Assembly: GCA_041495285.1 (NCBI GenBank)
Contig: JBGQCJ010000005.1
Coordinates: 15,374-79,373, forward strand
Direction of reading: 5' to 3'
Source of the DNA: Verrucomicrobiia bacterium
GTDB taxonomy: Bacteria; Verrucomicrobiota; Verrucomicrobiia; Palsa-1439
DNA length: 64,000 bases
Part shown: positions 53,951 through 64,000 of the stretch, in pieces
Position numbering within the stretch: the stretch's first letter is position 1
Layout: the number at the start of each line of letters is the position of its first letter
Made by a program: the position numbers and the translations under genes
Notes under the pieces: generated by a model
Database searches by the model: none
Seen by the model: only the letters and a program-made list of their open reading frames with translations
What the model was told of the DNA's origin: nothing

Positions 53951-55213
53951 TCATCCCGTCACCGGAAGCGCCGTGTGACTAGCCTTCGCGTCTACTTCGA
54001 CCGCCTTCCCGGTCACTGTCAGCCGAATTCGCCGGGCCTGCGCCAACAGATGGTCGGGACGCACGTCACCGTAGGTGTGCGCGATCAGGGCGGGGCCGGA
54101 CTTATCACCAAGCAGCGCCGCAATCTCGCTGTCTGTCAGCCCGGATTCTCGCGCTTGCGTGACGTAGAAACTTCGCAACCCGTGCGGGGTGACGTGCCCG
54201 ATCTTCAATTTCCGGCAAGCCGCCGTCAGCCGATGCCGGACGGCAGCCGCATCGCGGGGTTTGCTGGGGTCAAAGGGTGACGCGAACAGCAACGGGCTTG
54301 TTGCCCGTTCCTGCATAGCGCTCAGCAAGGCTTCCAGTTCAGGCGTGATTGCCACCCACGGCGTCACGCCCTTCTTCTCGCGTATCACATTCACAAGTCC
54401 TTCGGCCAGATTCACCATGCCCCACCGCAGCGGCAGCGCCTCGCCAATCCGCAAGCCGCTGTAGGCGAGAAATGCCACAAGGTCAGCAATCGCAATTTCG
54501 TTACGCCGGCGCAGCCAGCCGATGATTGCCTGCAAGCCTTCGGGTGTCGGCGCAACTTCCCGGCAGTGCCGCACGTCGGCGGCGCTAGTGTACGTGGTGC
54601 GGTCGCGCATCGGATTGGATTTCAACAGGTCGCGCCGGACGGCAAAGCGCAACACGTTGCCGAAGACGCCAAGCTCTAGGTCAACCGCGCGGTCGCCGCC
54701 CGTCGTGCGTTTGGTCCTTTCGTGCCCGCGCAGCTTATAGGTGACAACGTAACCGCCGCTCTTGCGCCAGGCGTGGTAACGGTCGCAATCGGCGTTCGTC
54801 ACCGACGCGGCAGGGTGCTCGCCGAAGTAGGCCAGCAATGGGCGCAGATGCCGCCGCTCGTTGTAGATCGTGCGGGGCAATTTCCGCCCCTTCGTCTTGC
54901 GTGGGTAGCCTGCCGTTTCGTATTCCGTTGCCAGTTCGCGCACCGTCACGCGCCCGCGCTGCAAGACAACGCCTTCGGGTTCAATCCCGTTTCGTATCAG
55001 CCAATGGTCACGCTTCCACTTCCGCAACCATTTGCGGGCGTCACTAGCATTGTCGGTTTCAGTGCTCTTCCAAGTCAACTTGCGATTGTCGCGCACGCGG
55101 GCGTAAATCTTCTTCCCTTCATAACGGAAGTGCTTCCCGCTTTCGTCCACGCCCTCGCGGACTTGCCGCGCCAAGCACGGGCCAATTATCTCGAAGCGTG
55201 TTTTGCTGGTCAT
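53951..55213 (-). CDS. Tyrosine-type site-specific integrase
   Basis: C-terminal catalytic domain with R...HGLRSFYVTQ...(H-x-x-R)...Y (LIAHTYG) tetrad. N-terminal SAM-like/arm-binding region. Confidence 0.85.
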   Translation of the reverse strand: MTSKTRFEIIGPCLARQVREGVDESGKHFRYEGKKIYARVRDNRKLTWKSTETDNASDARKWLRKWKRDHWLIRNGIEPEGVVLQRGRVTVRELATEYETAGYPRKTKGRKLPRTIYNERRHLRPLLAYFGEHPAASVTNADCDRYHAWRKSGGYVVTYKLRGHERTKRTTGGDRAVDLELGVFGNVLRFAVRRDLLKSNPMRDRTTYTSAADVRHCREVAPTPEGLQAIIGWLRRRNEIAIADLVAFLAYSGLRIGEALPLRWGMVNLAEGLVNVIREKKGVTPWVAITPELEALLSAMQERATSPLLFASPFDPSKPRDAAAVRHRLTAACRKLKIGHVTPHGLRSFYVTQARESGLTDSEIAALLGDKSGPALIAHTYGDVRPDHLLAQARRIRLTVTGKAVEVDAKASHTALPVTG

Positions 55214-55374
55214 GGCAGTTTCTCCAAGTAACGGGCGATCAGTTGGTCAATCACCCAACTTCTTTGCCGGTCCTTCTTGTCGCAGTACGTCTCCATCTTC
55301 GCTGCTGATTCGGGCGACACCGTTATGGACCATTTCACAGTTACGCCTTTGGGACTATTTGTTGGTCTGACCAT
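55210..55374 (-). CDS. Possible small ribbon-helix-helix (CopG-like) protein, stop overlapping the integrase start
   Basis: 54-aa ORF ...VKWSITVSPESAAKMETYCDKKDRQRSWVIDQLIARYLEKLP* has a beta-strand then two helices, typical of RHH. ATGA overlap with int. Its 5' end overlaps the recombinase 3' end by about 20 nt. Confidence 0.3.
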   Translation of the reverse strand: MVRPTNSPKGVTVKWSITVSPESAAKMETYCDKKDRQRSWVIDQLIARYLEKLP

Positions 55375-56095
55375 TGCGTATCTCCTTCTTGGTTGTGGCG
55401 CTCAAGGGATTTGTCCGCGCCAGGATTCTTAGAACTTGGATCGGTGTCCATTCAGTATGCCCGCGCTTCGTTGTCGCGCCGATCTTTTGCAGCTTGGCTG
55501 CGATCTTACGCAACGAAAAGCCGCGCTGACGCTGCTTACGGACAATGCCAATTACGCGTTGCTCGGTGTCGTTAGGCACCAGTTTTCCATCCACCGCCAC
55601 AAATCCAAACGGCACATCACCGCCGAGCTTCTCGCTGCGCTGCCGCTTGTATTGCATCGCACGCAGTGTTTTCTCGCTGATTTCCTTTCGGTAAACTTCA
55701 GCGAGGAGTGCCTTCAGCGTCAAATCCATCGTGCCGCTCACGGTCTTGTTTTCAACGAAGCCTTTATCCAGCGTGAAGAGCCGCGCCTTCGCCGGGCCGC
55801 AGACATCCTCCAAAAAAATCAGGGTATCCTTCTGCGAGCGGGACAATCGCGACAAGTCCGCAACAACGACGATGTTTGCCGCCTTCGCTTTCACCATCGC
55901 AACGAGCGCAGCAAATCCAGGCCGCTTGCTGGCGGGTTTTCCGCCACTGACGCCTTCGTCGCGCAACACCGCAATCAGTTCCCAGCTTTGCCGCGCGGCC
56001 TCGGCACAAATCAGCGCTTCTTGCCGTTGCAAGCTCTCGCCGTCTTTGACCTGCTCCTCTGTGCTTACGCGAATGTAACCGACTGACTTTATCAT
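55355..56095 (-). CDS. Serine recombinase (resolvase/invertase family) with C-terminal HTH
   Basis: SVGYIRVSTEEQ...GESLQRQ has the catalytic Ser motif. About 246 aa with C-terminal DNA-binding region. Confidence 0.85.
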   Translation of the reverse strand: MIKSVGYIRVSTEEQVKDGESLQRQEALICAEAARQSWELIAVLRDEGVSGGKPASKRPGFAALVAMVKAKAANIVVVADLSRLSRSQKDTLIFLEDVCGPAKARLFTLDKGFVENKTVSGTMDLTLKALLAEVYRKEISEKTLRAMQYKRQRSEKLGGDVPFGFVAVDGKLVPNDTEQRVIGIVRKQRQRGFSLRKIAAKLQKIGATTKRGHTEWTPIQVLRILARTNPLSATTKKEIRNGQTNK

Positions 56096-56670: not shown

Positions 56671-57505
56671 TCATGGCTTCGTCGAGCCGGCCAGCAGTTT
56701 CACCAGCCGGGTGCGTTCCTTCGTCTCCAATTGCCTTACCCGGGCCAACGCCTCCAAGTCCATGCGTTGCTCGACCTCGCTTCGGATCCGATGCCGCAAC
56801 ACGTCCACCGGGAGCGCGTCCAGTTCCACGCAGCGGTCGCCATGCTCGGCGATAAAAGCGGCGCGGCGCGTATCGGTGCGTTTGGTCGGGTCGGGCGGCA
56901 AGTGGTAGCGCTCGATGTCCTCGGCGGTCAGGGCGCACTTGACAATTTCTGGACAAAGCCTCGAAAAACGCCAGCCGCTCGCGCAGACTGCGCACCATGT
57001 CCTCGCCGCTGGGGTCGAAGTCGCCGAAGTAGAGCACGCTCGCATTGTCGCCACCGCCATAGCGATCAGCGGCATTGTGGATACTCGCCCAACCATCGTA
57101 ACCACGGCCCACGTTGAGCGTGACGCCATACGATTCGAGCACGTCCTCGAAAATGCCGGACAGTGCGTCCTTCTCGAGCCAGACCTCGACGTAACCCGGC
57201 TGGCTTGCCCACACGTCGCGACGGTATGCCTGACGCGCGGTTTCGCTGAAGTCAGCTAGGTCAGCCCACATGCTGACGGTTCGGGGTCGGCGCAACCGGT
57301 CTTCGATCCAAGCCCACGGGATCGTTCCGTCCTGGCGGGCGCGCACGAGCACATTACTGACTGCCTGATATTGGCTCCGGTTGTTTTCTATGACTTGTCT
57401 GGAAACGAGTTGGTAGTACACCTGCCGCACCGTCATCGGATGGTGTTCAGACAAAACCTCGACGGCGACTTCCAGCAACTGCTGCGTTTTCGCATGCCTA
57501 CCCAT
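56671..57505 (-). pseudogene. Topo VI-A/Spo11-like 'mini-A' protein (winged-helix with YY, toprim with DxD), interrupted by a frameshift
   Basis: AAGGAG SD then ATG 57505. MTVRQVYYQLV (R-x-V-Y-Y, as in the Spo11/TopVIA catalytic Tyr region), YVEVWLEKDALSGIF (toprim E), LYFGDFDPSGEDM (toprim DxDPxG). The frame breaks near a T5 run at about 56960-56975. A second frame continues ...PEIVKCALTAEDIERYHL...LAGSTKP to stop 56671. Confidence 0.5.
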
Positions 57506-57897: not shown

Positions 57898-58509
57898 TCA
57901 GTTCAGTTGATTCGGCCACTCGGGACAGAAGAAAGGCGTCAGAAACCTTGCTTTGTCAAACGGAACCCGAAACGGCAAGTTCGCCCCAGCGAATGGGACG
58001 TTGAACACTCGTCGTTCGGACTGCATGGTTTCAACCCAAAACTGTCCGTCCTCTATGTGCATGATACAGACGCACTCGCTGAGGAACTCCTGACAAAAGC
58101 GTTCCGGTGAGGCGAACTTCGTCTCGACTTCGAGCAAATCGGGAGCACCATCAGCCCTTAAGAGTCCTTCCACTTTTTTCAGCCCTCCCGCCTCCTGTAG
58201 ATCCCACAGCCTCTCCAAGAGCTCGTCACTTGCGGCAAAAAAACTTGTCGCGTCGGGAACCAGATGAGCGATCGTGTCGGGCTGACAGAACCGCAAGAAC
58301 TCCACGGCTCTCCGTCTTCTTGGTTCTTCATGGTTGTAGACGGCGGATACGATCCAGATTTGACCACGGTGTGGGGCTGTCCGTGCGGTCTTTCTGTATG
58401 GTCTTGGCGCGAGATTTTGCAGCACCAGCCGAAACTCCTCGGCTAATCGCATGTGAACTGTTCCGAGCTTGATCACTTTATCACTGTTATGGCGTGTGCT
58501 TCTTAACAT
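57898..58509 (-). CDS. Hypothetical protein (element cargo)
   Basis: 203-aa ORF with slightly lower GC. No recognisable motif; the start could be at internal Met-20. Confidence 0.4.
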   Translation of the reverse strand: MLRSTRHNSDKVIKLGTVHMRLAEEFRLVLQNLAPRPYRKTARTAPHRGQIWIVSAVYNHEEPRRRRAVEFLRFCQPDTIAHLVPDATSFFAASDELLERLWDLQEAGGLKKVEGLLRADGAPDLLEVETKFASPERFCQEFLSECVCIMHIEDGQFWVETMQSERRVFNVPFAGANLPFRVPFDKARFLTPFFCPEWPNQLN

Positions 58510-58530
58510 TGGTTACTCTCCTATATGGAT

Positions 58531-59472
58531 CTAGTTGTTCTTTCTAATGGACTCCACTCCCTGCTTCTCATCGAGTAGGTGACGGCTGATGAAGTCAACG
58601 AGGCTGTTGAGCGTCCTCCGAACCTTCTTGGACAGTGGCGCGCCCTTGGCGACGAGATCGGCAATGCGCTTGACGGTGGTCTCGATCATGTTCACCTCTG
58701 TCTCCAGCGTAGACAACGGCGTGGCGTCCCGTACATCCGCCTCCGTGGGCGTAGCCGCGCTCAACTCGCGGCGCTCGCACTCGCCCGCCTTGCGATGCAG
58801 CTCCACCAGAGGACGCAGTGCCTCCGCCCACCCGTGTAGCAACACGGTGTCCTTGCAGCCCTCAAGGTCCCAGTAGGTCGGGAGTTTGTCAGTGAACCGC
58901 CGGATGACTACCGCCCCTGAGACCTTGTCCACGCCTCCGTCGATGTCTTCGACCTTCAGGCGGGTCGGCGTCCCGTAATCCTTGAGTTCCCAGTTGTAGA
59001 TCACCTTGCCCCGCTTGATGGACCGGCGCAACGCAGCGCGCGTCAACTTGTGCTTCTCCGCCTCGTTGAGCCAACGATCTTGCTCCTCGGGCTCAAGGTG
59101 CGCGACCTCGCGGTGATGCTCCCACGACAGTTTGTCGCGCCGGCGCGACGGATCCACGCTCCCCGCTACCCAGTTTAAGTCGCGCAAAGTGGCCTGCCGA
59201 TATTCCATCGCCGCTGGAAGTTTTGAGTACTCCTCGCCCCATTCATGCTCGCCGTACCGTAACCAATCGCCGATCCACCACCTCAACGCGCCGCCGGCAC
59301 GGCAGAGCTTCGCACCAATGTCCTGCCACTCCTTTTCGGTGATCTTTCTGGTGACGAGCAACGAGGTCTTGGTGAACTCGATCCCAGGCAGGATCAAACC
59401 ACTCTCGAGTTTCATCGGCTCATTCCCGCAGTTTACCGCGGTGGTTTCCGCATTCTGTAACTTGTTCTTCAT
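58531..59472 (-). CDS. Hypothetical protein with W-W-I-G-D-W-L / L-S-W-E-H-H motif (DUF3102-like, phage/plasmid-associated)
   Basis: 313 aa. ALRWWIGDWLRYGEHEWGEEY ... LSWEHHREVAHL resembles DUF3102-type proteins; this is recalled pattern only. Confidence 0.4.
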   Translation of the reverse strand: MKNKLQNAETTAVNCGNEPMKLESGLILPGIEFTKTSLLVTRKITEKEWQDIGAKLCRAGGALRWWIGDWLRYGEHEWGEEYSKLPAAMEYRQATLRDLNWVAGSVDPSRRRDKLSWEHHREVAHLEPEEQDRWLNEAEKHKLTRAALRRSIKRGKVIYNWELKDYGTPTRLKVEDIDGGVDKVSGAVVIRRFTDKLPTYWDLEGCKDTVLLHGWAEALRPLVELHRKAGECERRELSAATPTEADVRDATPLSTLETEVNMIETTVKRIADLVAKGAPLSKKVRRTLNSLVDFISRHLLDEKQGVESIRKNN

Positions 59473-59906
59473 ATTCGTTCCTCCTTTTCACCCTGTAAAG
59501 ACGCCGCGCGGGGGGTCTGTTGCAGAGGGGTGCGGCGGTTTTCTTTGATAGCCCGATCCCGTGCGGCTCCCGTTTCGCCTCGGTCGGAGACACCTCGTCG
59601 CTCTTGACCTGCTCGAACAGCTCCGGCTTCTCCGCCGCCCACCCCGCCAGGAACTTGGCCTGGCCACTATCCTTCTTGCTGATGTCGAGTTTGTCGAGCG
59701 TGGGCGGCGCGTCTGGTTGGGGTTCCTTCCGGGAACTCCGAGTGCCTCCGCCCTTGCGTCCCCGCGCTCCAGCTTGCTTCGGCTTCTTCCTCAGGAACTC
59801 GCCTATGACCCGCACGCCTCGATCTCGATGGCGTGGGCCTACCTTGGACTTCTTAGCCGCCTTACTGCCGAGGACATCGGGATGATTTGACAAAAGCATC
59901 GGTAAA

Positions 59907-61172
59907 TTGATAGCTCTCGACCTGCTGGAAACAGCGGGCATGGCACGGAAGCGATCCAAACTGACGATGAGCAGGACGCAACTGACTGAAGTGCGGCAAC
60001 GGCTGCGTCAGGCGGAGCAACAAGAGCGTGAGGCGCGTAAGCGGGGTGAAACGAGTGTGGCGAACGTCGCATGGGAACATGTGCAACGTCTGAAGGCTGT
60101 GCTAATGGCCACGAGCGGTAAACACACTTTGGACGAGATCGCCTTAGAGTGTGGGTGTGCGCGCTCGACGGCGCACATCTGGCTGGAAAAGTTCACTCGC
60201 GTAGGGCTGCCCGCCCTTTTGCTCAGCAGCGCGACGGGCAGACCGAGCCGCATCGCCGATCCGACCGTGCAGGCGGAACTGCGGGCGGGCTTGCGGGAAG
60301 GCGAGTTGTACACGGCCGACGAAGTGGTAGCGTGGTTGCGCTTGACTTACGGCATCGAGTGCCCGGCTCAATCTTTGTACTACTGGATGAGAAAACTCGA
60401 CCCAGCGAGTCTGCCGGTTGACCAGACCATACTCGGTGACGCGATAGAGGTCATGGCTCCGTGGCTCGACCAGTGTGTGGATGCGGTCATCTCAGACTTT
60501 CCCGCCGGGTTGACGAACGCCCCGCACGACAAGTCGCCGCCCCTCGAGCGCCTCTGGCCGCTGCTTCACCGGCTCAGTCGGGGCGTCGTCATTACGACTG
60601 CGAGCCAACCGTTCGCCTCGCTGTGTGTCGCCAGCAATCTGAAGAATTTCAGGCATGACTGGGTAATGCGGAAGAACCGCGGGTCGAACTTCGCCTGCAC
60701 GGTGCGCCAGCCGATGCGGGACCATGAGCATGTCTTGGTTTTCTGCGCCAAAACCAATTGGACATTTAACCCGCAACGCGAGCAACGCCGAGGCAGTGGC
60801 ATGCACATGGCGGGACGAATGACGACCTGGATGTCGCGGAGCACCAACTACCGAGAGAGCGGCGACGAGTTCAAGCCTCGCACCGGCATCGTCACCGAAG
60901 ATCGCGTGCCTTCATCCGTGCAGGACATCCAGGTCGAGACCGGTCTTCACCCCCAGCAGAAGAGTTTGAATTTTTTTCGCTATTTGGTGCGGACGTACAG
61001 TAATCCGGGAGACATTATTCTCGACCCATACTGCGGTTCAGCTACGACCTGCCGCGCCGCGCAACTTGAAGGCCGACACTTCGTAGGAATAGAGATTGAC
61101 CCCGAGCGTTTCCGTGTTGCCCAGAAACGTGTGGCTGAACCATTCCTGCCTGACTATTCCGGACGCAGATAA
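59907..61172 (+). CDS. DNA methyltransferase (N6-adenine / N4-cytosine, PF01555-like, permuted beta-class) with N-terminal HTH
   Basis: C-terminal motif I IILDPYCGSATTCRAAQLEGRHFVGIEID. Upstream candidate motif IV region DAVISDFPAG (degenerate DPPY). N-terminal ALECGCARSTAHIWLEKF is HTH-like. No adjacent restriction endonuclease gene. Confidence 0.65.
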   Translation: MIALDLLETAGMARKRSKLTMSRTQLTEVRQRLRQAEQQEREARKRGETSVANVAWEHVQRLKAVLMATSGKHTLDEIALECGCARSTAHIWLEKFTRVGLPALLLSSATGRPSRIADPTVQAELRAGLREGELYTADEVVAWLRLTYGIECPAQSLYYWMRKLDPASLPVDQTILGDAIEVMAPWLDQCVDAVISDFPAGLTNAPHDKSPPLERLWPLLHRLSRGVVITTASQPFASLCVASNLKNFRHDWVMRKNRGSNFACTVRQPMRDHEHVLVFCAKTNWTFNPQREQRRGSGMHMAGRMTTWMSRSTNYRESGDEFKPRTGIVTEDRVPSSVQDIQVETGLHPQQKSLNFFRYLVRTYSNPGDIILDPYCGSATTCRAAQLEGRHFVGIEIDPERFRVAQKRVAEPFLPDYSGRR

Positions 61173-61536: not shown

Positions 61537-63384
61537 TCAAATTTCGAGGGTTTCAGCATAGGCTTTTGCGGTTGGTTGCGGGGTTTGCGGGCTTTCATCC
61601 AAGGATTTGGCAAAAGTCCCTATGTAATCTTCTTGTGAGGATTTTCCTGAAATCGTTGCGGCAAACCCCGCAAACCCCGCAGTAGATCCGCTGCGGATGC
61701 GAAAGTTAGCAATACCGTTCCGATTCTTCTCTCGTGTTGCGTCAAAGAGGCTTTCTATATGAAGCCAGAGCGATGTTAGTCGTTTGCCCAATCGTTTCGA
61801 CGACCAGAGCCGCTTGCCATGATTTCCCTTGGCATCATCTCCGAAGTCGGCGTCGTATTTGGCAAACTTGTCCAACAGTTCCGCCGCCGTCCCGGCAAAG
61901 CCGTCAGGCTCGTTCGTCATCATGTCCAGTAAAGCCTTGCCGACGGGGTCGTTTTCCAAACAGAACCGGGACTTGTCAGCTTCGGCGGCTGACATGGCGG
62001 CGATAGCTTCGACTTCGGCGTTCATTGCCCTGCCAAGTTTGATCGCCAGCGTGCCGAAGTCCGGATGCCGCAAGTTGAGTCCCTTCGGCGTGGGCAGTTC
62101 ATCCGCCAGTGCCGCCGACAACGTCCGGGCAACCCACGATAGCCCGGCGGAGCGAGCCGCCGAAATTTCGGCGAGCAGCGCAGCATCATCTGTTTCGCCC
62201 ATTCGTCTATTCATGCGAACAAGTAAGAGCCTGTCCGCTGTTGCAGAGTCAGAGGCGAACAAGGGGTTAGCCGTGGTGACGGCAAGCCATGCCTTCGGCA
62301 GTAACTTGGTTTGTTGATCGTTGGTGTAGAGCTGCCGCTCTTGTTTCCCGCCGCCCGTTGCCGCCGCAGACAACGCTGACGGCAACCATTTAATCCAATT
62401 ATCTACGTTGTCGGGGATCACCAAGCCGCCGCCATTGATCGCGACCCAAAAGTCGTGTTGGCTCTTGTCCGTTTTGTCCAGTTCGGCCGGTTCGCTGGGC
62501 AGTCCAAACAGTCGGGCAATGCCGATGGCTGTCTTGGTCTTACCGCTGCGTATTTCGCCCGAAAAAATGATCGGCGGTTTACAGTTCGGATTTGTCGGCA
62601 AGCTCGTTACCCATAGCTTCAACAGCAACTTCCCGTGCGGATCGGCATAAGCGGCGTCCCGAAATAACCGGCAGGACTCAAACGGATCTTGCGGCTCGGT
62701 CAATTCCCATGTTGGCAATGTCATGCCTACTGGGAACAAAACACCGTCAGTCCCGTTGTCCACCGCCTCGACGTTGGACGCCGTGATCTTCGCACTCTGC
62801 CCGTCACCGTTGGATAGGTAAATCGCCTTGTCTCGGCTCGCCCAATAGGTTTCTGGGATGATGCCCGTGCCGTGCAACGCCGCAACCTCGACAGCGGCGG
62901 CAATGTACTGGAAAACCGGGTTGCCCATGTTGATCGCCGTAAGTTGAGCAACGTCGGATAGAAACTCGTCTGATTGGACTCGCAGCAACCGCTTGGTTTG
63001 ACTGTCGAAAAACATGGCGGTTGCAAAGTCCCGGTGTTGGGAATGAAAGTAGAACAGCCCCCGCTGGTTCAGAAATTCGACGGCAACATTTGCAACGGCT
63101 TCGTGCTTTTCCGTTGCTGGCAGGCGGGTTGACAGAATGCCGACAATCGCCGCCCGTAGCTCCTCGACGTTGGTAGTCGCCCCGGTGTTGATAGTCAGTC
63201 GAGCTTCACGCTTGCGGCTGTGTGCGTCAGGTTCAAAGTGTTTGCGAAACTCTCGCCAGCGCTTACCGCTGCAACCATCATGGTGACATTTGAAGCCAAG
63301 TCTGCCATCTGCGTTTTCAAAAACTGCAACCTCACCATGAACTCCATGCTCCGGGTTAAACGGGCACGATGCTAATTCGTACAC
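61537..63384 (-). CDS. Phage/plasmid P4-type primase-helicase (zinc-binding N-domain plus SF3-like P-loop)
   Basis: CPFNPEHGVHGEVAVFENADGRLGFKCHHDGC is a zinc-binding motif. Walker A-like FSGEIRSGKTKTAIGIA. Overall about 615 aa. GTG start; upstream frame open without ATG. Confidence 0.7.
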   Translation of the reverse strand: MYELASCPFNPEHGVHGEVAVFENADGRLGFKCHHDGCSGKRWREFRKHFEPDAHSRKREARLTINTGATTNVEELRAAIVGILSTRLPATEKHEAVANVAVEFLNQRGLFYFHSQHRDFATAMFFDSQTKRLLRVQSDEFLSDVAQLTAINMGNPVFQYIAAAVEVAALHGTGIIPETYWASRDKAIYLSNGDGQSAKITASNVEAVDNGTDGVLFPVGMTLPTWELTEPQDPFESCRLFRDAAYADPHGKLLLKLWVTSLPTNPNCKPPIIFSGEIRSGKTKTAIGIARLFGLPSEPAELDKTDKSQHDFWVAINGGGLVIPDNVDNWIKWLPSALSAAATGGGKQERQLYTNDQQTKLLPKAWLAVTTANPLFASDSATADRLLLVRMNRRMGETDDAALLAEISAARSAGLSWVARTLSAALADELPTPKGLNLRHPDFGTLAIKLGRAMNAEVEAIAAMSAAEADKSRFCLENDPVGKALLDMMTNEPDGFAGTAAELLDKFAKYDADFGDDAKGNHGKRLWSSKRLGKRLTSLWLHIESLFDATREKNRNGIANFRIRSGSTAGFAGFAATISGKSSQEDYIGTFAKSLDESPQTPQPTAKAYAETLEI

Positions 63385-63467: not shown

Positions 63468-64000
63468 CGGGCCGAATCTATCTGCATTTTTGGCCCTAGC
63501 ACAATTAGCCCGCCGGCGATGGGCTTGTGCTGGGAACACGGCGTCGCCGTCAATTTCCTCTCTGAGAACGGTTACTTCCAAGCGCGCGTGACGGGCGTCG
63601 CCGATACCAGCGTGACATTGCGCCGCACCCAATTCCGCGCCGCTGATGATCCCGTGAAATCCGCCGCCATTGCCCGTCAGATCGTCGCGGGCAAAATCCA
63701 GAACGCGCGCAACAGTCTTTTGCGCGCGGGGCGCGAGACCGGGAACGCCGACGAACAAGCCAGGGTCGCCGCCGCTACCGACGCGCTCGCCCGCAGTCTG
63801 CGCGAGTTGGAGACGATCCGCGACCTCGAAGCTGTGCGCGGCAGCGAAGGCATAGCGGCGCAGATTTACTTTGCCGTGTTCACATTGTTGCTCAAGCAAC
63901 AGCGCGACGAATTTGTGTTTACCACGCGCACCCGTCGTCCGCCGCGCGACCGGATCAATTGCCTGCTCTCCTTTCTCTACGCCTTGGTGCGGCATGATTG
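63468..64000 (+). CDS. cas1: CRISPR-associated Cas1 integrase, 5'-truncated and running off the window
   Basis: Collinear with type I-C Cas1 from about residue 60: ESICIFGPSTISPPAMGLCWEHGVAVNFLSENGYFQARVTG...VTLRRTQF...AVRGSEGIAAQIYFAVFTLLLKQ...FTTRTRRPPRDRINCLLSFLYALV. An in-frame stop at 63465-63467 sits immediately upstream. None of the three upstream frames encodes the N-terminal domain. Confidence 0.85.

Follow-up and report, generated by a model that had tools for sequence, protein, structure and literature searches.

Known relatives and the interval examined

To our knowledge, antibiotic gene clusters of actinomycetes are the only setting from which the LmbU regulator domain has been described. 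LmbU itself is experimentally established as a DNA-binding transcription regulator, and its helix-turn-helix (HTH) has been modelled on Spo0J (PMC6510168). In a different field, Swarozyc is a TIR-like NADase whose activity requires an auxiliary domain and is triggered by the phage portal (bioRxiv 10.64898/2026.05.01.722283), and the paper on Mini-A, a Topo VI-A-like protein, leaves open an undiscovered partner, the hypothetical 'Mini-B' (PMC7671362). Here we set against these systems a small integrative element of a Verrucomicrobiia bacterium, contained in 64,000 nucleotides of DNA (assembly GCA_041495285.1, contig JBGQCJ010000005.1, positions 15,374 to 79,373 of the forward strand) that we call the window and in whose numbering all positions are given. 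The interval 57898-59472 of this window was described in an earlier note, made from the sequence alone, as holding two open reading frames (ORFs) of 203 and 313 amino acids (aa), hereafter ORF203 and ORF313, with coordinates and lengths that prove exact. The note took them for uncharacterised cargo, possibly for defence or anti-defence, that could form a module with a neighbouring orphan methyltransferase (MTase) and a Topo-like protein (mini-A). We find instead, with a probability that we put at roughly 0.6, that the interval holds two unrelated real genes, ORF313 encoding a DNA-binding protein and ORF203 a stand-alone domain, and that the two are not a conserved pair.

ORF203 and ORF313 are both protein-coding genes, as Shine-Dalgarno sites (Table 1), coding-like GC content and homologues attest. 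The two lie in a common frame with a gap of 22 nt, and GC at codon positions 1/2/3 is 0.59/0.42/0.79 in ORF313 and 0.58/0.42/0.59 in ORF203; the low value at the second position is coding-like, whereas spurious overlapping ORFs have a high one. Full-domain homologues exist elsewhere for ORF313 and ORF203 alike. The DNA that encodes them is found on three contigs from two samples only, all near-identical to the window, with two mismatches over 15.5 kb in a JGI metagenome contig and complete identity in a Logan assembly. Both genes lie between mini-A and the MTase gene, as had been noted, but a third ORF of 179 aa (ORF179) intervenes between ORF313 and the MTase gene.

ORF313 carries an LmbU-family DNA-binding domain

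The N-terminal ~130 residues of ORF313 are an LmbU-family domain with a ParB/Spo0J-type HTH. Residues 35-156 match the NCBIfam model NF038070 (LmbU family transcriptional regulator) with an E-value of 6.2e-31 and a score of 107.6 bits, and in a confident AlphaFold2 (AF2) model this N-domain adopts a Spo0J/ParB-like HTH fold. The earlier finding of no assignable domains holds for both ORFs in Pfam, PHROGs and PADLOC, and for ORF203 in NCBIfam as well, but not for ORF313 in that last library; against PADLOC-DB 2.0, ORF313 gives noise only (E 0.04-0.06). The WWIGDWL...LSWEHH motif that had attracted notice in ORF313 is present, at residues 65-71 and 115-120. A search of 5.8 billion clusters yields 34 homologues, each of which aligns to the N-terminal 33-50% of ORF313 only, and W49, G53, I67, D69, W70, R111, L115, H120 and L135 are invariant in all 35 sequences including ORF313; because it contains several of these residues, the motif is the signature of the LmbU family.

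The remainder of the protein has a different character, with a disordered linker (residues 163-209) and a coiled-coil-like tail beyond it in the AF2 model, and this C-terminal half has no relative anywhere in the searches made. ORF313 is without an MTase domain (no Pfam, PADLOC or NCBIfam MTase match), and a degenerate MTase in its C-terminus is ruled out by the coiled-coil model together with an empty phmmer --max search against the LmbU-MTase fusion proteins described below. Weak Pfam matches of ORF313 (DUF1016_N at 0.036, SRAP and GIT1_C) were not used as evidence; the weak match to DUF1016_N is also seen in two of its homologues.

ORF313 thus has the same DNA-binding domain as the LmbU regulators LmbU of Streptomyces lincolnensis, SACE_5599 and HmtD, with the common signature WWIGDW, SRRR and LSWSHH. 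It differs from them in that its C-terminal half is an unrelated coiled coil and the family profile is covered only in part, and it lies on an integrative mobile element of a ~59% GC bacterium, whereas LmbU lies in an actinomycete antibiotic gene cluster. Its sequence identity to ParB/Spo0J partition proteins is 7-14%, and it has no ParBc Pfam match, i.e., no N-terminal CTP-binding domain; no ParA is present among the genes called for the element, although no search was aimed at ParA or parS.

Given the family match, the invariant signature, the LmbU precedent and the early- and replication-region contexts of its phage relatives, the most likely reading of ORF313 is a regulator of the element that is of the LmbU/ParB-HTH type, dimerises and binds DNA in a sequence-specific manner. 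The coiled-coil tail would mediate dimerisation, and the protein would bind specific sites on the element and control its replication or modification genes, as characterised LmbU proteins do at promoters. The earlier note had held that clear homology to regulatory phage proteins would speak against its proposal, and ORF313 does belong to a DNA-binding regulator family that is common in phage DNA-metabolism regions. Taken alone, ORF313 is an ordinary protein.

The LmbU-like domain of phages is linked to DNA methyltransferases

The pattern [WF]WIGDW[LIV] retrieves 62 viral ORF313-like loci from IMG/VR (L016-L077). All 31 long homologues match NF038070, with a best E-value of 2.6e-44, and so do all 30 viral homologues longer than 270 aa; 26 of these 30 are methylase fusions (21 MT-A70, four N6_N4_Mtase and one C5). 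Counted by locus, 28 of the 62 are methylase-fused, three encode a stand-alone homologue with a separate methylase gene at most 1 kb away, and ~28 have no methylase nearby; an MTase domain is also found in five of the 34 database homologues. The N-domains of the phage LmbU-domain MTases are 35-46% identical to that of ORF313 and are its closest relatives, and the three nearest viral proteins (L016, L017 and L019, 43-46% identity) are all fusions. Example loci for the LmbU-like domain are L016:606-1559, L017:2822-3763 and L063:9983-11200.

The ORF313 domain family therefore has a real and recurrent link with DNA MTases, which the earlier note had not anticipated, and a full-text literature search found no paper that describes it. 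The LmbU regulator domain is a common phage domain, most often the N-terminus of a DNA MTase, and this link suggests that it is a general DNA-targeting module. The viral genes have neighbours typical of phage DNA metabolism (helicases, primases, ERF, PD-(D/E)XK nucleases and Mom) or else lie near the large terminase, with no constant partner gene. Of three homologue contexts looked at closely, one belongs to the replication module of a prophage (Phage_rep_O, DnaB_C), another to an early region (ERF, HTH_3) and the last to an actinobacterial locus that resembles a biosynthetic gene cluster. Among cultured phages, a weak match to ORF313 is found in two Synechococcus phages only.

ORF203 encodes a putative sensor domain on its own

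ORF203 is a lone version of a putative sensor domain from a family of TIR/NDT-like proteins. A word-indexed search with ORF203 returns ORF203 itself only, and an exhaustive phmmer search of 1.84 billion representatives finds six relatives of its full length, P0037, P0038, P0039, P0042, P0043 and P0046, with E-values of 4e-28, 2e-27 and 5e-14 for the first three; the best two (P0037 and P0038) are 36-40% identical to it. A profile search enlarges the family to 21 clusters, most of 333-349 aa, and ~25 relatives are known among billions of proteins. In most of them a further ~140 residues are present at the C-terminus, which score close to threshold against PF05014 (Nuc_deoxyrib_tr), hit the PADLOC TIR-effector model PDLC00733 with E-values of 4e-13 to 5e-16 and, as a profile, weakly match DNPH1 and NDT structures. 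One family member carries the NCBI label 'TIR domain-containing protein'.

An alignment of 25 sequences shows a sharp domain boundary, with E145, R166 and P183 invariant, and ORF203, P0037, P0038 and P0042 stop just past the N-domain. ORF203 keeps the complete ~190-residue N-domain including all three invariant residues, and lacks the C-terminal TIR/NDT-like domain with its motif ERPNVYYELGYA; no TIR/NDT-like sequence or remnant is detected 3' of ORF203 or elsewhere in the window, either by tblastn at E <= 10 or with a hidden Markov model of the family. Not one of 50,697 phage and 72,556 plasmid records contains a member of the family, a BFVD fold search with ORF203 gives nothing at E <= 0.001, and alignment profiles A1 and A2 find no match among PDB sequences. 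phmmer matches of residues 81-115 to WD40 proteins come from one ~35-residue stretch summed over 5-9 target repeats; since these residues form a helix in the model (H87-106), the resemblance is superficial, and with no Pfam WD40 match a WD40 identity was rejected.

The neighbours of the relatives with both domains, which we refer to as full-length, place several of them among defence genes. A Paenibacillus peoriae gene (P0071) sits among SduA_C, Peptidase_C14, DUF5677 and RelA_SpoT genes, another adjoins NERD, ATPase_2 and Fic genes, and another has an ApeA-like gene next in line; one further relative adjoins conjugation/replication-type genes (FtsK/SpoIIIE, DnaD and a type IA topoisomerase). 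The TIR/NDT-like module (NVYYELGY) is present in 240 stretches of GTDB genomes, and an ORF203-like domain is found in only three of the best 80 such loci; the module is mostly joined to other N-termini, the distribution expected if sensors vary while the effector stays constant. The ~335-aa family with an ORF203-like N-domain and a TIR/NDT-like C-domain is a candidate anti-phage system on this sequence and context evidence. It was seen in defence-island-like neighbourhoods at L078:10001-11011 (Paenibacillus peoriae), L080:10001-11011, L013:10001-11002 and L111:376-1350 (Ferrovum myxofaciens), and PADLOC sees only its TIR part.

A sensor role is suggested by the combination of N-domain and effector, an architecture typical of sensor-effector proteins. 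ORF203 would then bind the ligand or partner that the domain recognises, perhaps for a regulatory purpose or to interfere with an immune protein of the host. The defence or anti-defence role proposed earlier is thus plausible for ORF203, through its TIR/NDT-like relatives in defence islands, but not for ORF313, which belongs to a regulator family. With Swarozyc/DUF4062 and ThsB-type TIR proteins, the full-length relatives share a modular logic, a variable non-catalytic domain joined to a TIR/NDT-like domain, whereas ORF203 is the non-catalytic domain alone. The TIR/NDT-like domain is C-terminal in the ORF203 family, in contrast to the N-terminal DUF4062 of Swarozyc, and the effector of the family is closer to PF05014/DNPH1-type N-glycosidases. 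ORF203 points to a rare family in which a sensor-like domain is joined to a TIR/NDT-like effector, with genes in defence-island settings, and to effector-less versions that stand alone; the family and these versions are leads for phage-defence biology, built on ~25 sequences.

The gene pair is not conserved in other elements

With a reconstructed mini-A as query, 25 viral loci are recovered, whose full-length identity to it reaches 72%. None of the 25, which include relatives at 60-72% identity, has an ORF313-, ORF203- or ORF179-like gene, and an N6_N4 methylase lies within 10 kb in five. In the closest relatives, the slot upstream of mini-A is occupied by a DnaB helicase (L087) or by phage recombination genes (L088), and a third close relative (L086) has too little upstream sequence to read. 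Among 68 other loci with an ORF313-like gene, none has a relative of mini-A, ORF203, ORF179 or the primase-like protein of this element, and the contexts of ORF203 relatives have nothing in common with it. The searches revealed no sister element; for the primase-like protein there is a single partial relative, 52% identical, whose 5-kb contig breaks off within the gene. Conservation of the gene pair, which the earlier note had suggested as a check on its proposal, is thus seen in no other element found. The pair is unique to this element, and the module proposed with the MTase and mini-A is therefore unsupported.

Weighing the alternatives

Several observations weigh against a regulator and a stand-alone sensor-like domain as the reading of these two genes. 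ORF313 falls short of the curated NF038070 cutoff (125 bits), and its match extends over no more than positions 1-122 of the 171 in the profile. The promoter target of LmbU is the palindrome CGCCGGCG, which is present seven times in the window against 7.2 expected; the intergenic regions of the element contain no convincing palindromes or iterons and offer no operator candidate, and a promoter and terminator scan of the three-gene cluster of ORF179, ORF313 and ORF203 gives results at chance level only. About half of the viral homologues of ORF313 are MTase domains and not regulators, so that regulation is not the sole role of an LmbU-like domain. The element shows signs of decay in a frameshifted mini-A and an MTase with the motif DFPA, and ORF203 or ORF313 could for this reason be non-functional. 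As for ORF203, its AF2 model was built on an alignment of seven sequences only, the stand-alone forms come from short and uninformative contigs, and the sensor role is drawn from architecture and context only.

In a weaker alternative to the regulator, ORF313 works with the methylase: as a partner on a separate polypeptide, it would target the neighbouring orphan MTase to DNA or regulate it, in a split version of the phage LmbU-MTase fusions. The prevalence of fusions among the long viral homologues, across the viral loci and in all three nearest viral relatives is what such a split would lead one to expect, and the three viral loci with a separate methylase gene, the five database homologues with MTase domains and the mere 435 bp between the MTase gene and ORF313 fit as well. 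However, whereas the phage proteins are fused, ORF313 is separate from an MTase that is divergently transcribed, with ORF179 intervening, and that has an N-terminal HTH of its own (HTH_29/HTH_23); the ~28 viral stand-alone homologues have no MTase nearby, and the MTase in question, with DFPA for DPPY in motif IV, may not methylate. We consider this arrangement unlikely. Far less credible is the idea that ORF203, ORF313, the orphan MTase and mini-A constitute an undescribed accessory module for defence or anti-defence, with one of the ORFs perhaps the missing 'Mini-B'. The genes are adjacent in one element and the Mini-A paper leaves room for an undiscovered partner protein (PMC7671362), but the mini-A loci and the ORF313-like loci do not share the set (0 of 25 and 0 of 68), other genes fill the slot upstream of mini-A in L087 and L088, neither ORF203 nor ORF313 has a PADLOC match, and mini-A is frameshifted here. 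Because co-occurrence is absent, the four-gene module is largely refuted.

For ORF203, the stand-alone putative sensor domain has to be compared with an anti-defence decoy, an effector-less protein, encoded by the mobile element, that would imitate the sensor domain of a TIR/NDT-like abortive-infection protein of the host and act by sequestering its trigger or by spoiling the assembly of the host protein. TIR/NDT-like fusions in defence islands dominate the family, ORF203 is on an integrative element without an effector, and the stand-alone proteins ORF203, P0037 and P0038 are 37-40% identical to one another versus 19-32% to the fused forms, which suggests a maintained effector-less lineage. 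Yet known anti-defence genes are usually widespread in phages, and this family is absent from the phage and plasmid records searched; it consists of a handful of sequences, it has no full-length member in the 64-kb window, and for every member the argument is one of sequence and context. We regard a decoy as quite improbable, and as a long shot the broader proposal that ORF203 represents an undescribed class of mobile-element, effector-less sensor mimics that blunt TIR/NDT-like immunity while the full-length family is a new anti-phage system; if this were true, the sensor fold of that family would be one with no solved relative. It is also possible to see in ORF203 a functionless, decaying 5' remnant of a full-length TIR/NDT-like gene in a degenerating element, in keeping with the frameshifted mini-A, the non-canonical catalytic motif of the MTase, a GC content at third codon positions that is lower in ORF203 (0.59) than in ORF313 (0.79), and ~390 bp of non-coding DNA 3' of ORF203. 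The lack of any TIR/NDT-like trace 3' of the gene or anywhere in the window, the existence of three other independent stand-alone proteins of like length (181-198 aa) and a domain that is complete with E145, R166 and P183 all kept make a remnant very unlikely.

The surrounding element

Table 1 Features of the interval and of the surrounding element
Feature	Position	Strand	Description
ORF203 (203 aa)	57898-58509	-	stand-alone alpha/beta domain; N-terminal part of TIR/NDT-like proteins in most relatives
ORF313 (313 aa)	58531-59472	-	LmbU-family N-terminal domain and coiled-coil C-terminus
ORF313 N-terminal domain, aa ~30-160	58993-59385	-	helical, LmbU/ParB-HTH-like; WWIGDWL and LSWEHH
ORF313 C-terminal region, aa 207-312	58537-58854	-	long helices, coiled-coil-like
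Ribosome-binding site AAGGAGG	59480-59486	-	7 nt 5' of ORF313 ATG; read from sequence
Ribosome-binding site AGGAG	58518-58522	-	8 nt 5' of ORF203 ATG; read from sequence
ORF179 (179 aa)	59420-59959	-	leading gene of ORF179-ORF313-ORF203 minus-strand cluster
mini-A (Topo VI-A-like)	56671-57505	-	split by frameshift
Orphan N6_N4 MTase (421 aa)	59907-61172	+	IS630-type HTH at N-terminus (HTH_29/HTH_23)
Tyrosine integrase (420 aa) and serine resolvase-type recombinase (246 aa), small RHH protein between	53951-56095	-	
Primase-like protein (615 aa)	61537-63384	-	N-terminus Cys/His-rich: CPFNPEHG...FKCHHDGC
CRISPR locus adjoining element	63519-64000 and beyond; L001:1-2904	+	

ORF179 encodes a basic protein with a lysine/arginine-rich N-terminal half and has no homologue or domain by Pfam, PHROGs, PADLOC, NCBIfam or phmmer. 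Its overlap with the start of ORF313 is 53 nt long, and it runs divergently to the MTase gene, whose ORF its 5' end also overlaps; in other annotators' calls its length is 159-173 aa. In mini-A, the first 181 aa and the last ~90 aa, the latter with the CVELDAL box, are in different frames, with the switch between 56952 and 56963, just after a T5 run at 56964-56968. Relatives at 60-72% identity are uninterrupted, and the frameshift is either that of a pseudogene or a homopolymer sequencing error. Motif IV of the MTase reads DFPA (aa 197-200; 60495-60506, plus strand) where DPPY aligns, as seen when VDAVISDFPAGL of the MTase is compared with VDAIITDPPYNI of DpnA, and since DFPA replaces the catalytic DPPY the enzyme may be catalytically impaired.

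A search for att repeats on either side of the element found none, and near the recombinases there is an HTH_17 (AlpA/excisionase-like) gene. Only the N-terminal ~60 residues of the primase-like protein (aa 2-60) recur widely across metagenomes, at 13 loci and with 35-57% identity; for the remainder there is the one partial relative mentioned above. Spacers of the adjacent CRISPR array match neither the window nor the element nor any fetched locus. In this locus cas1 begins 135 bp from the primase-like gene and is followed by cas2 and by the array itself, which has at least 22 repeats (GTTTCAATCCGCGCCGCGCCCTTGCGAGCGCGGCGAC) with spacers of 33-35 nt.

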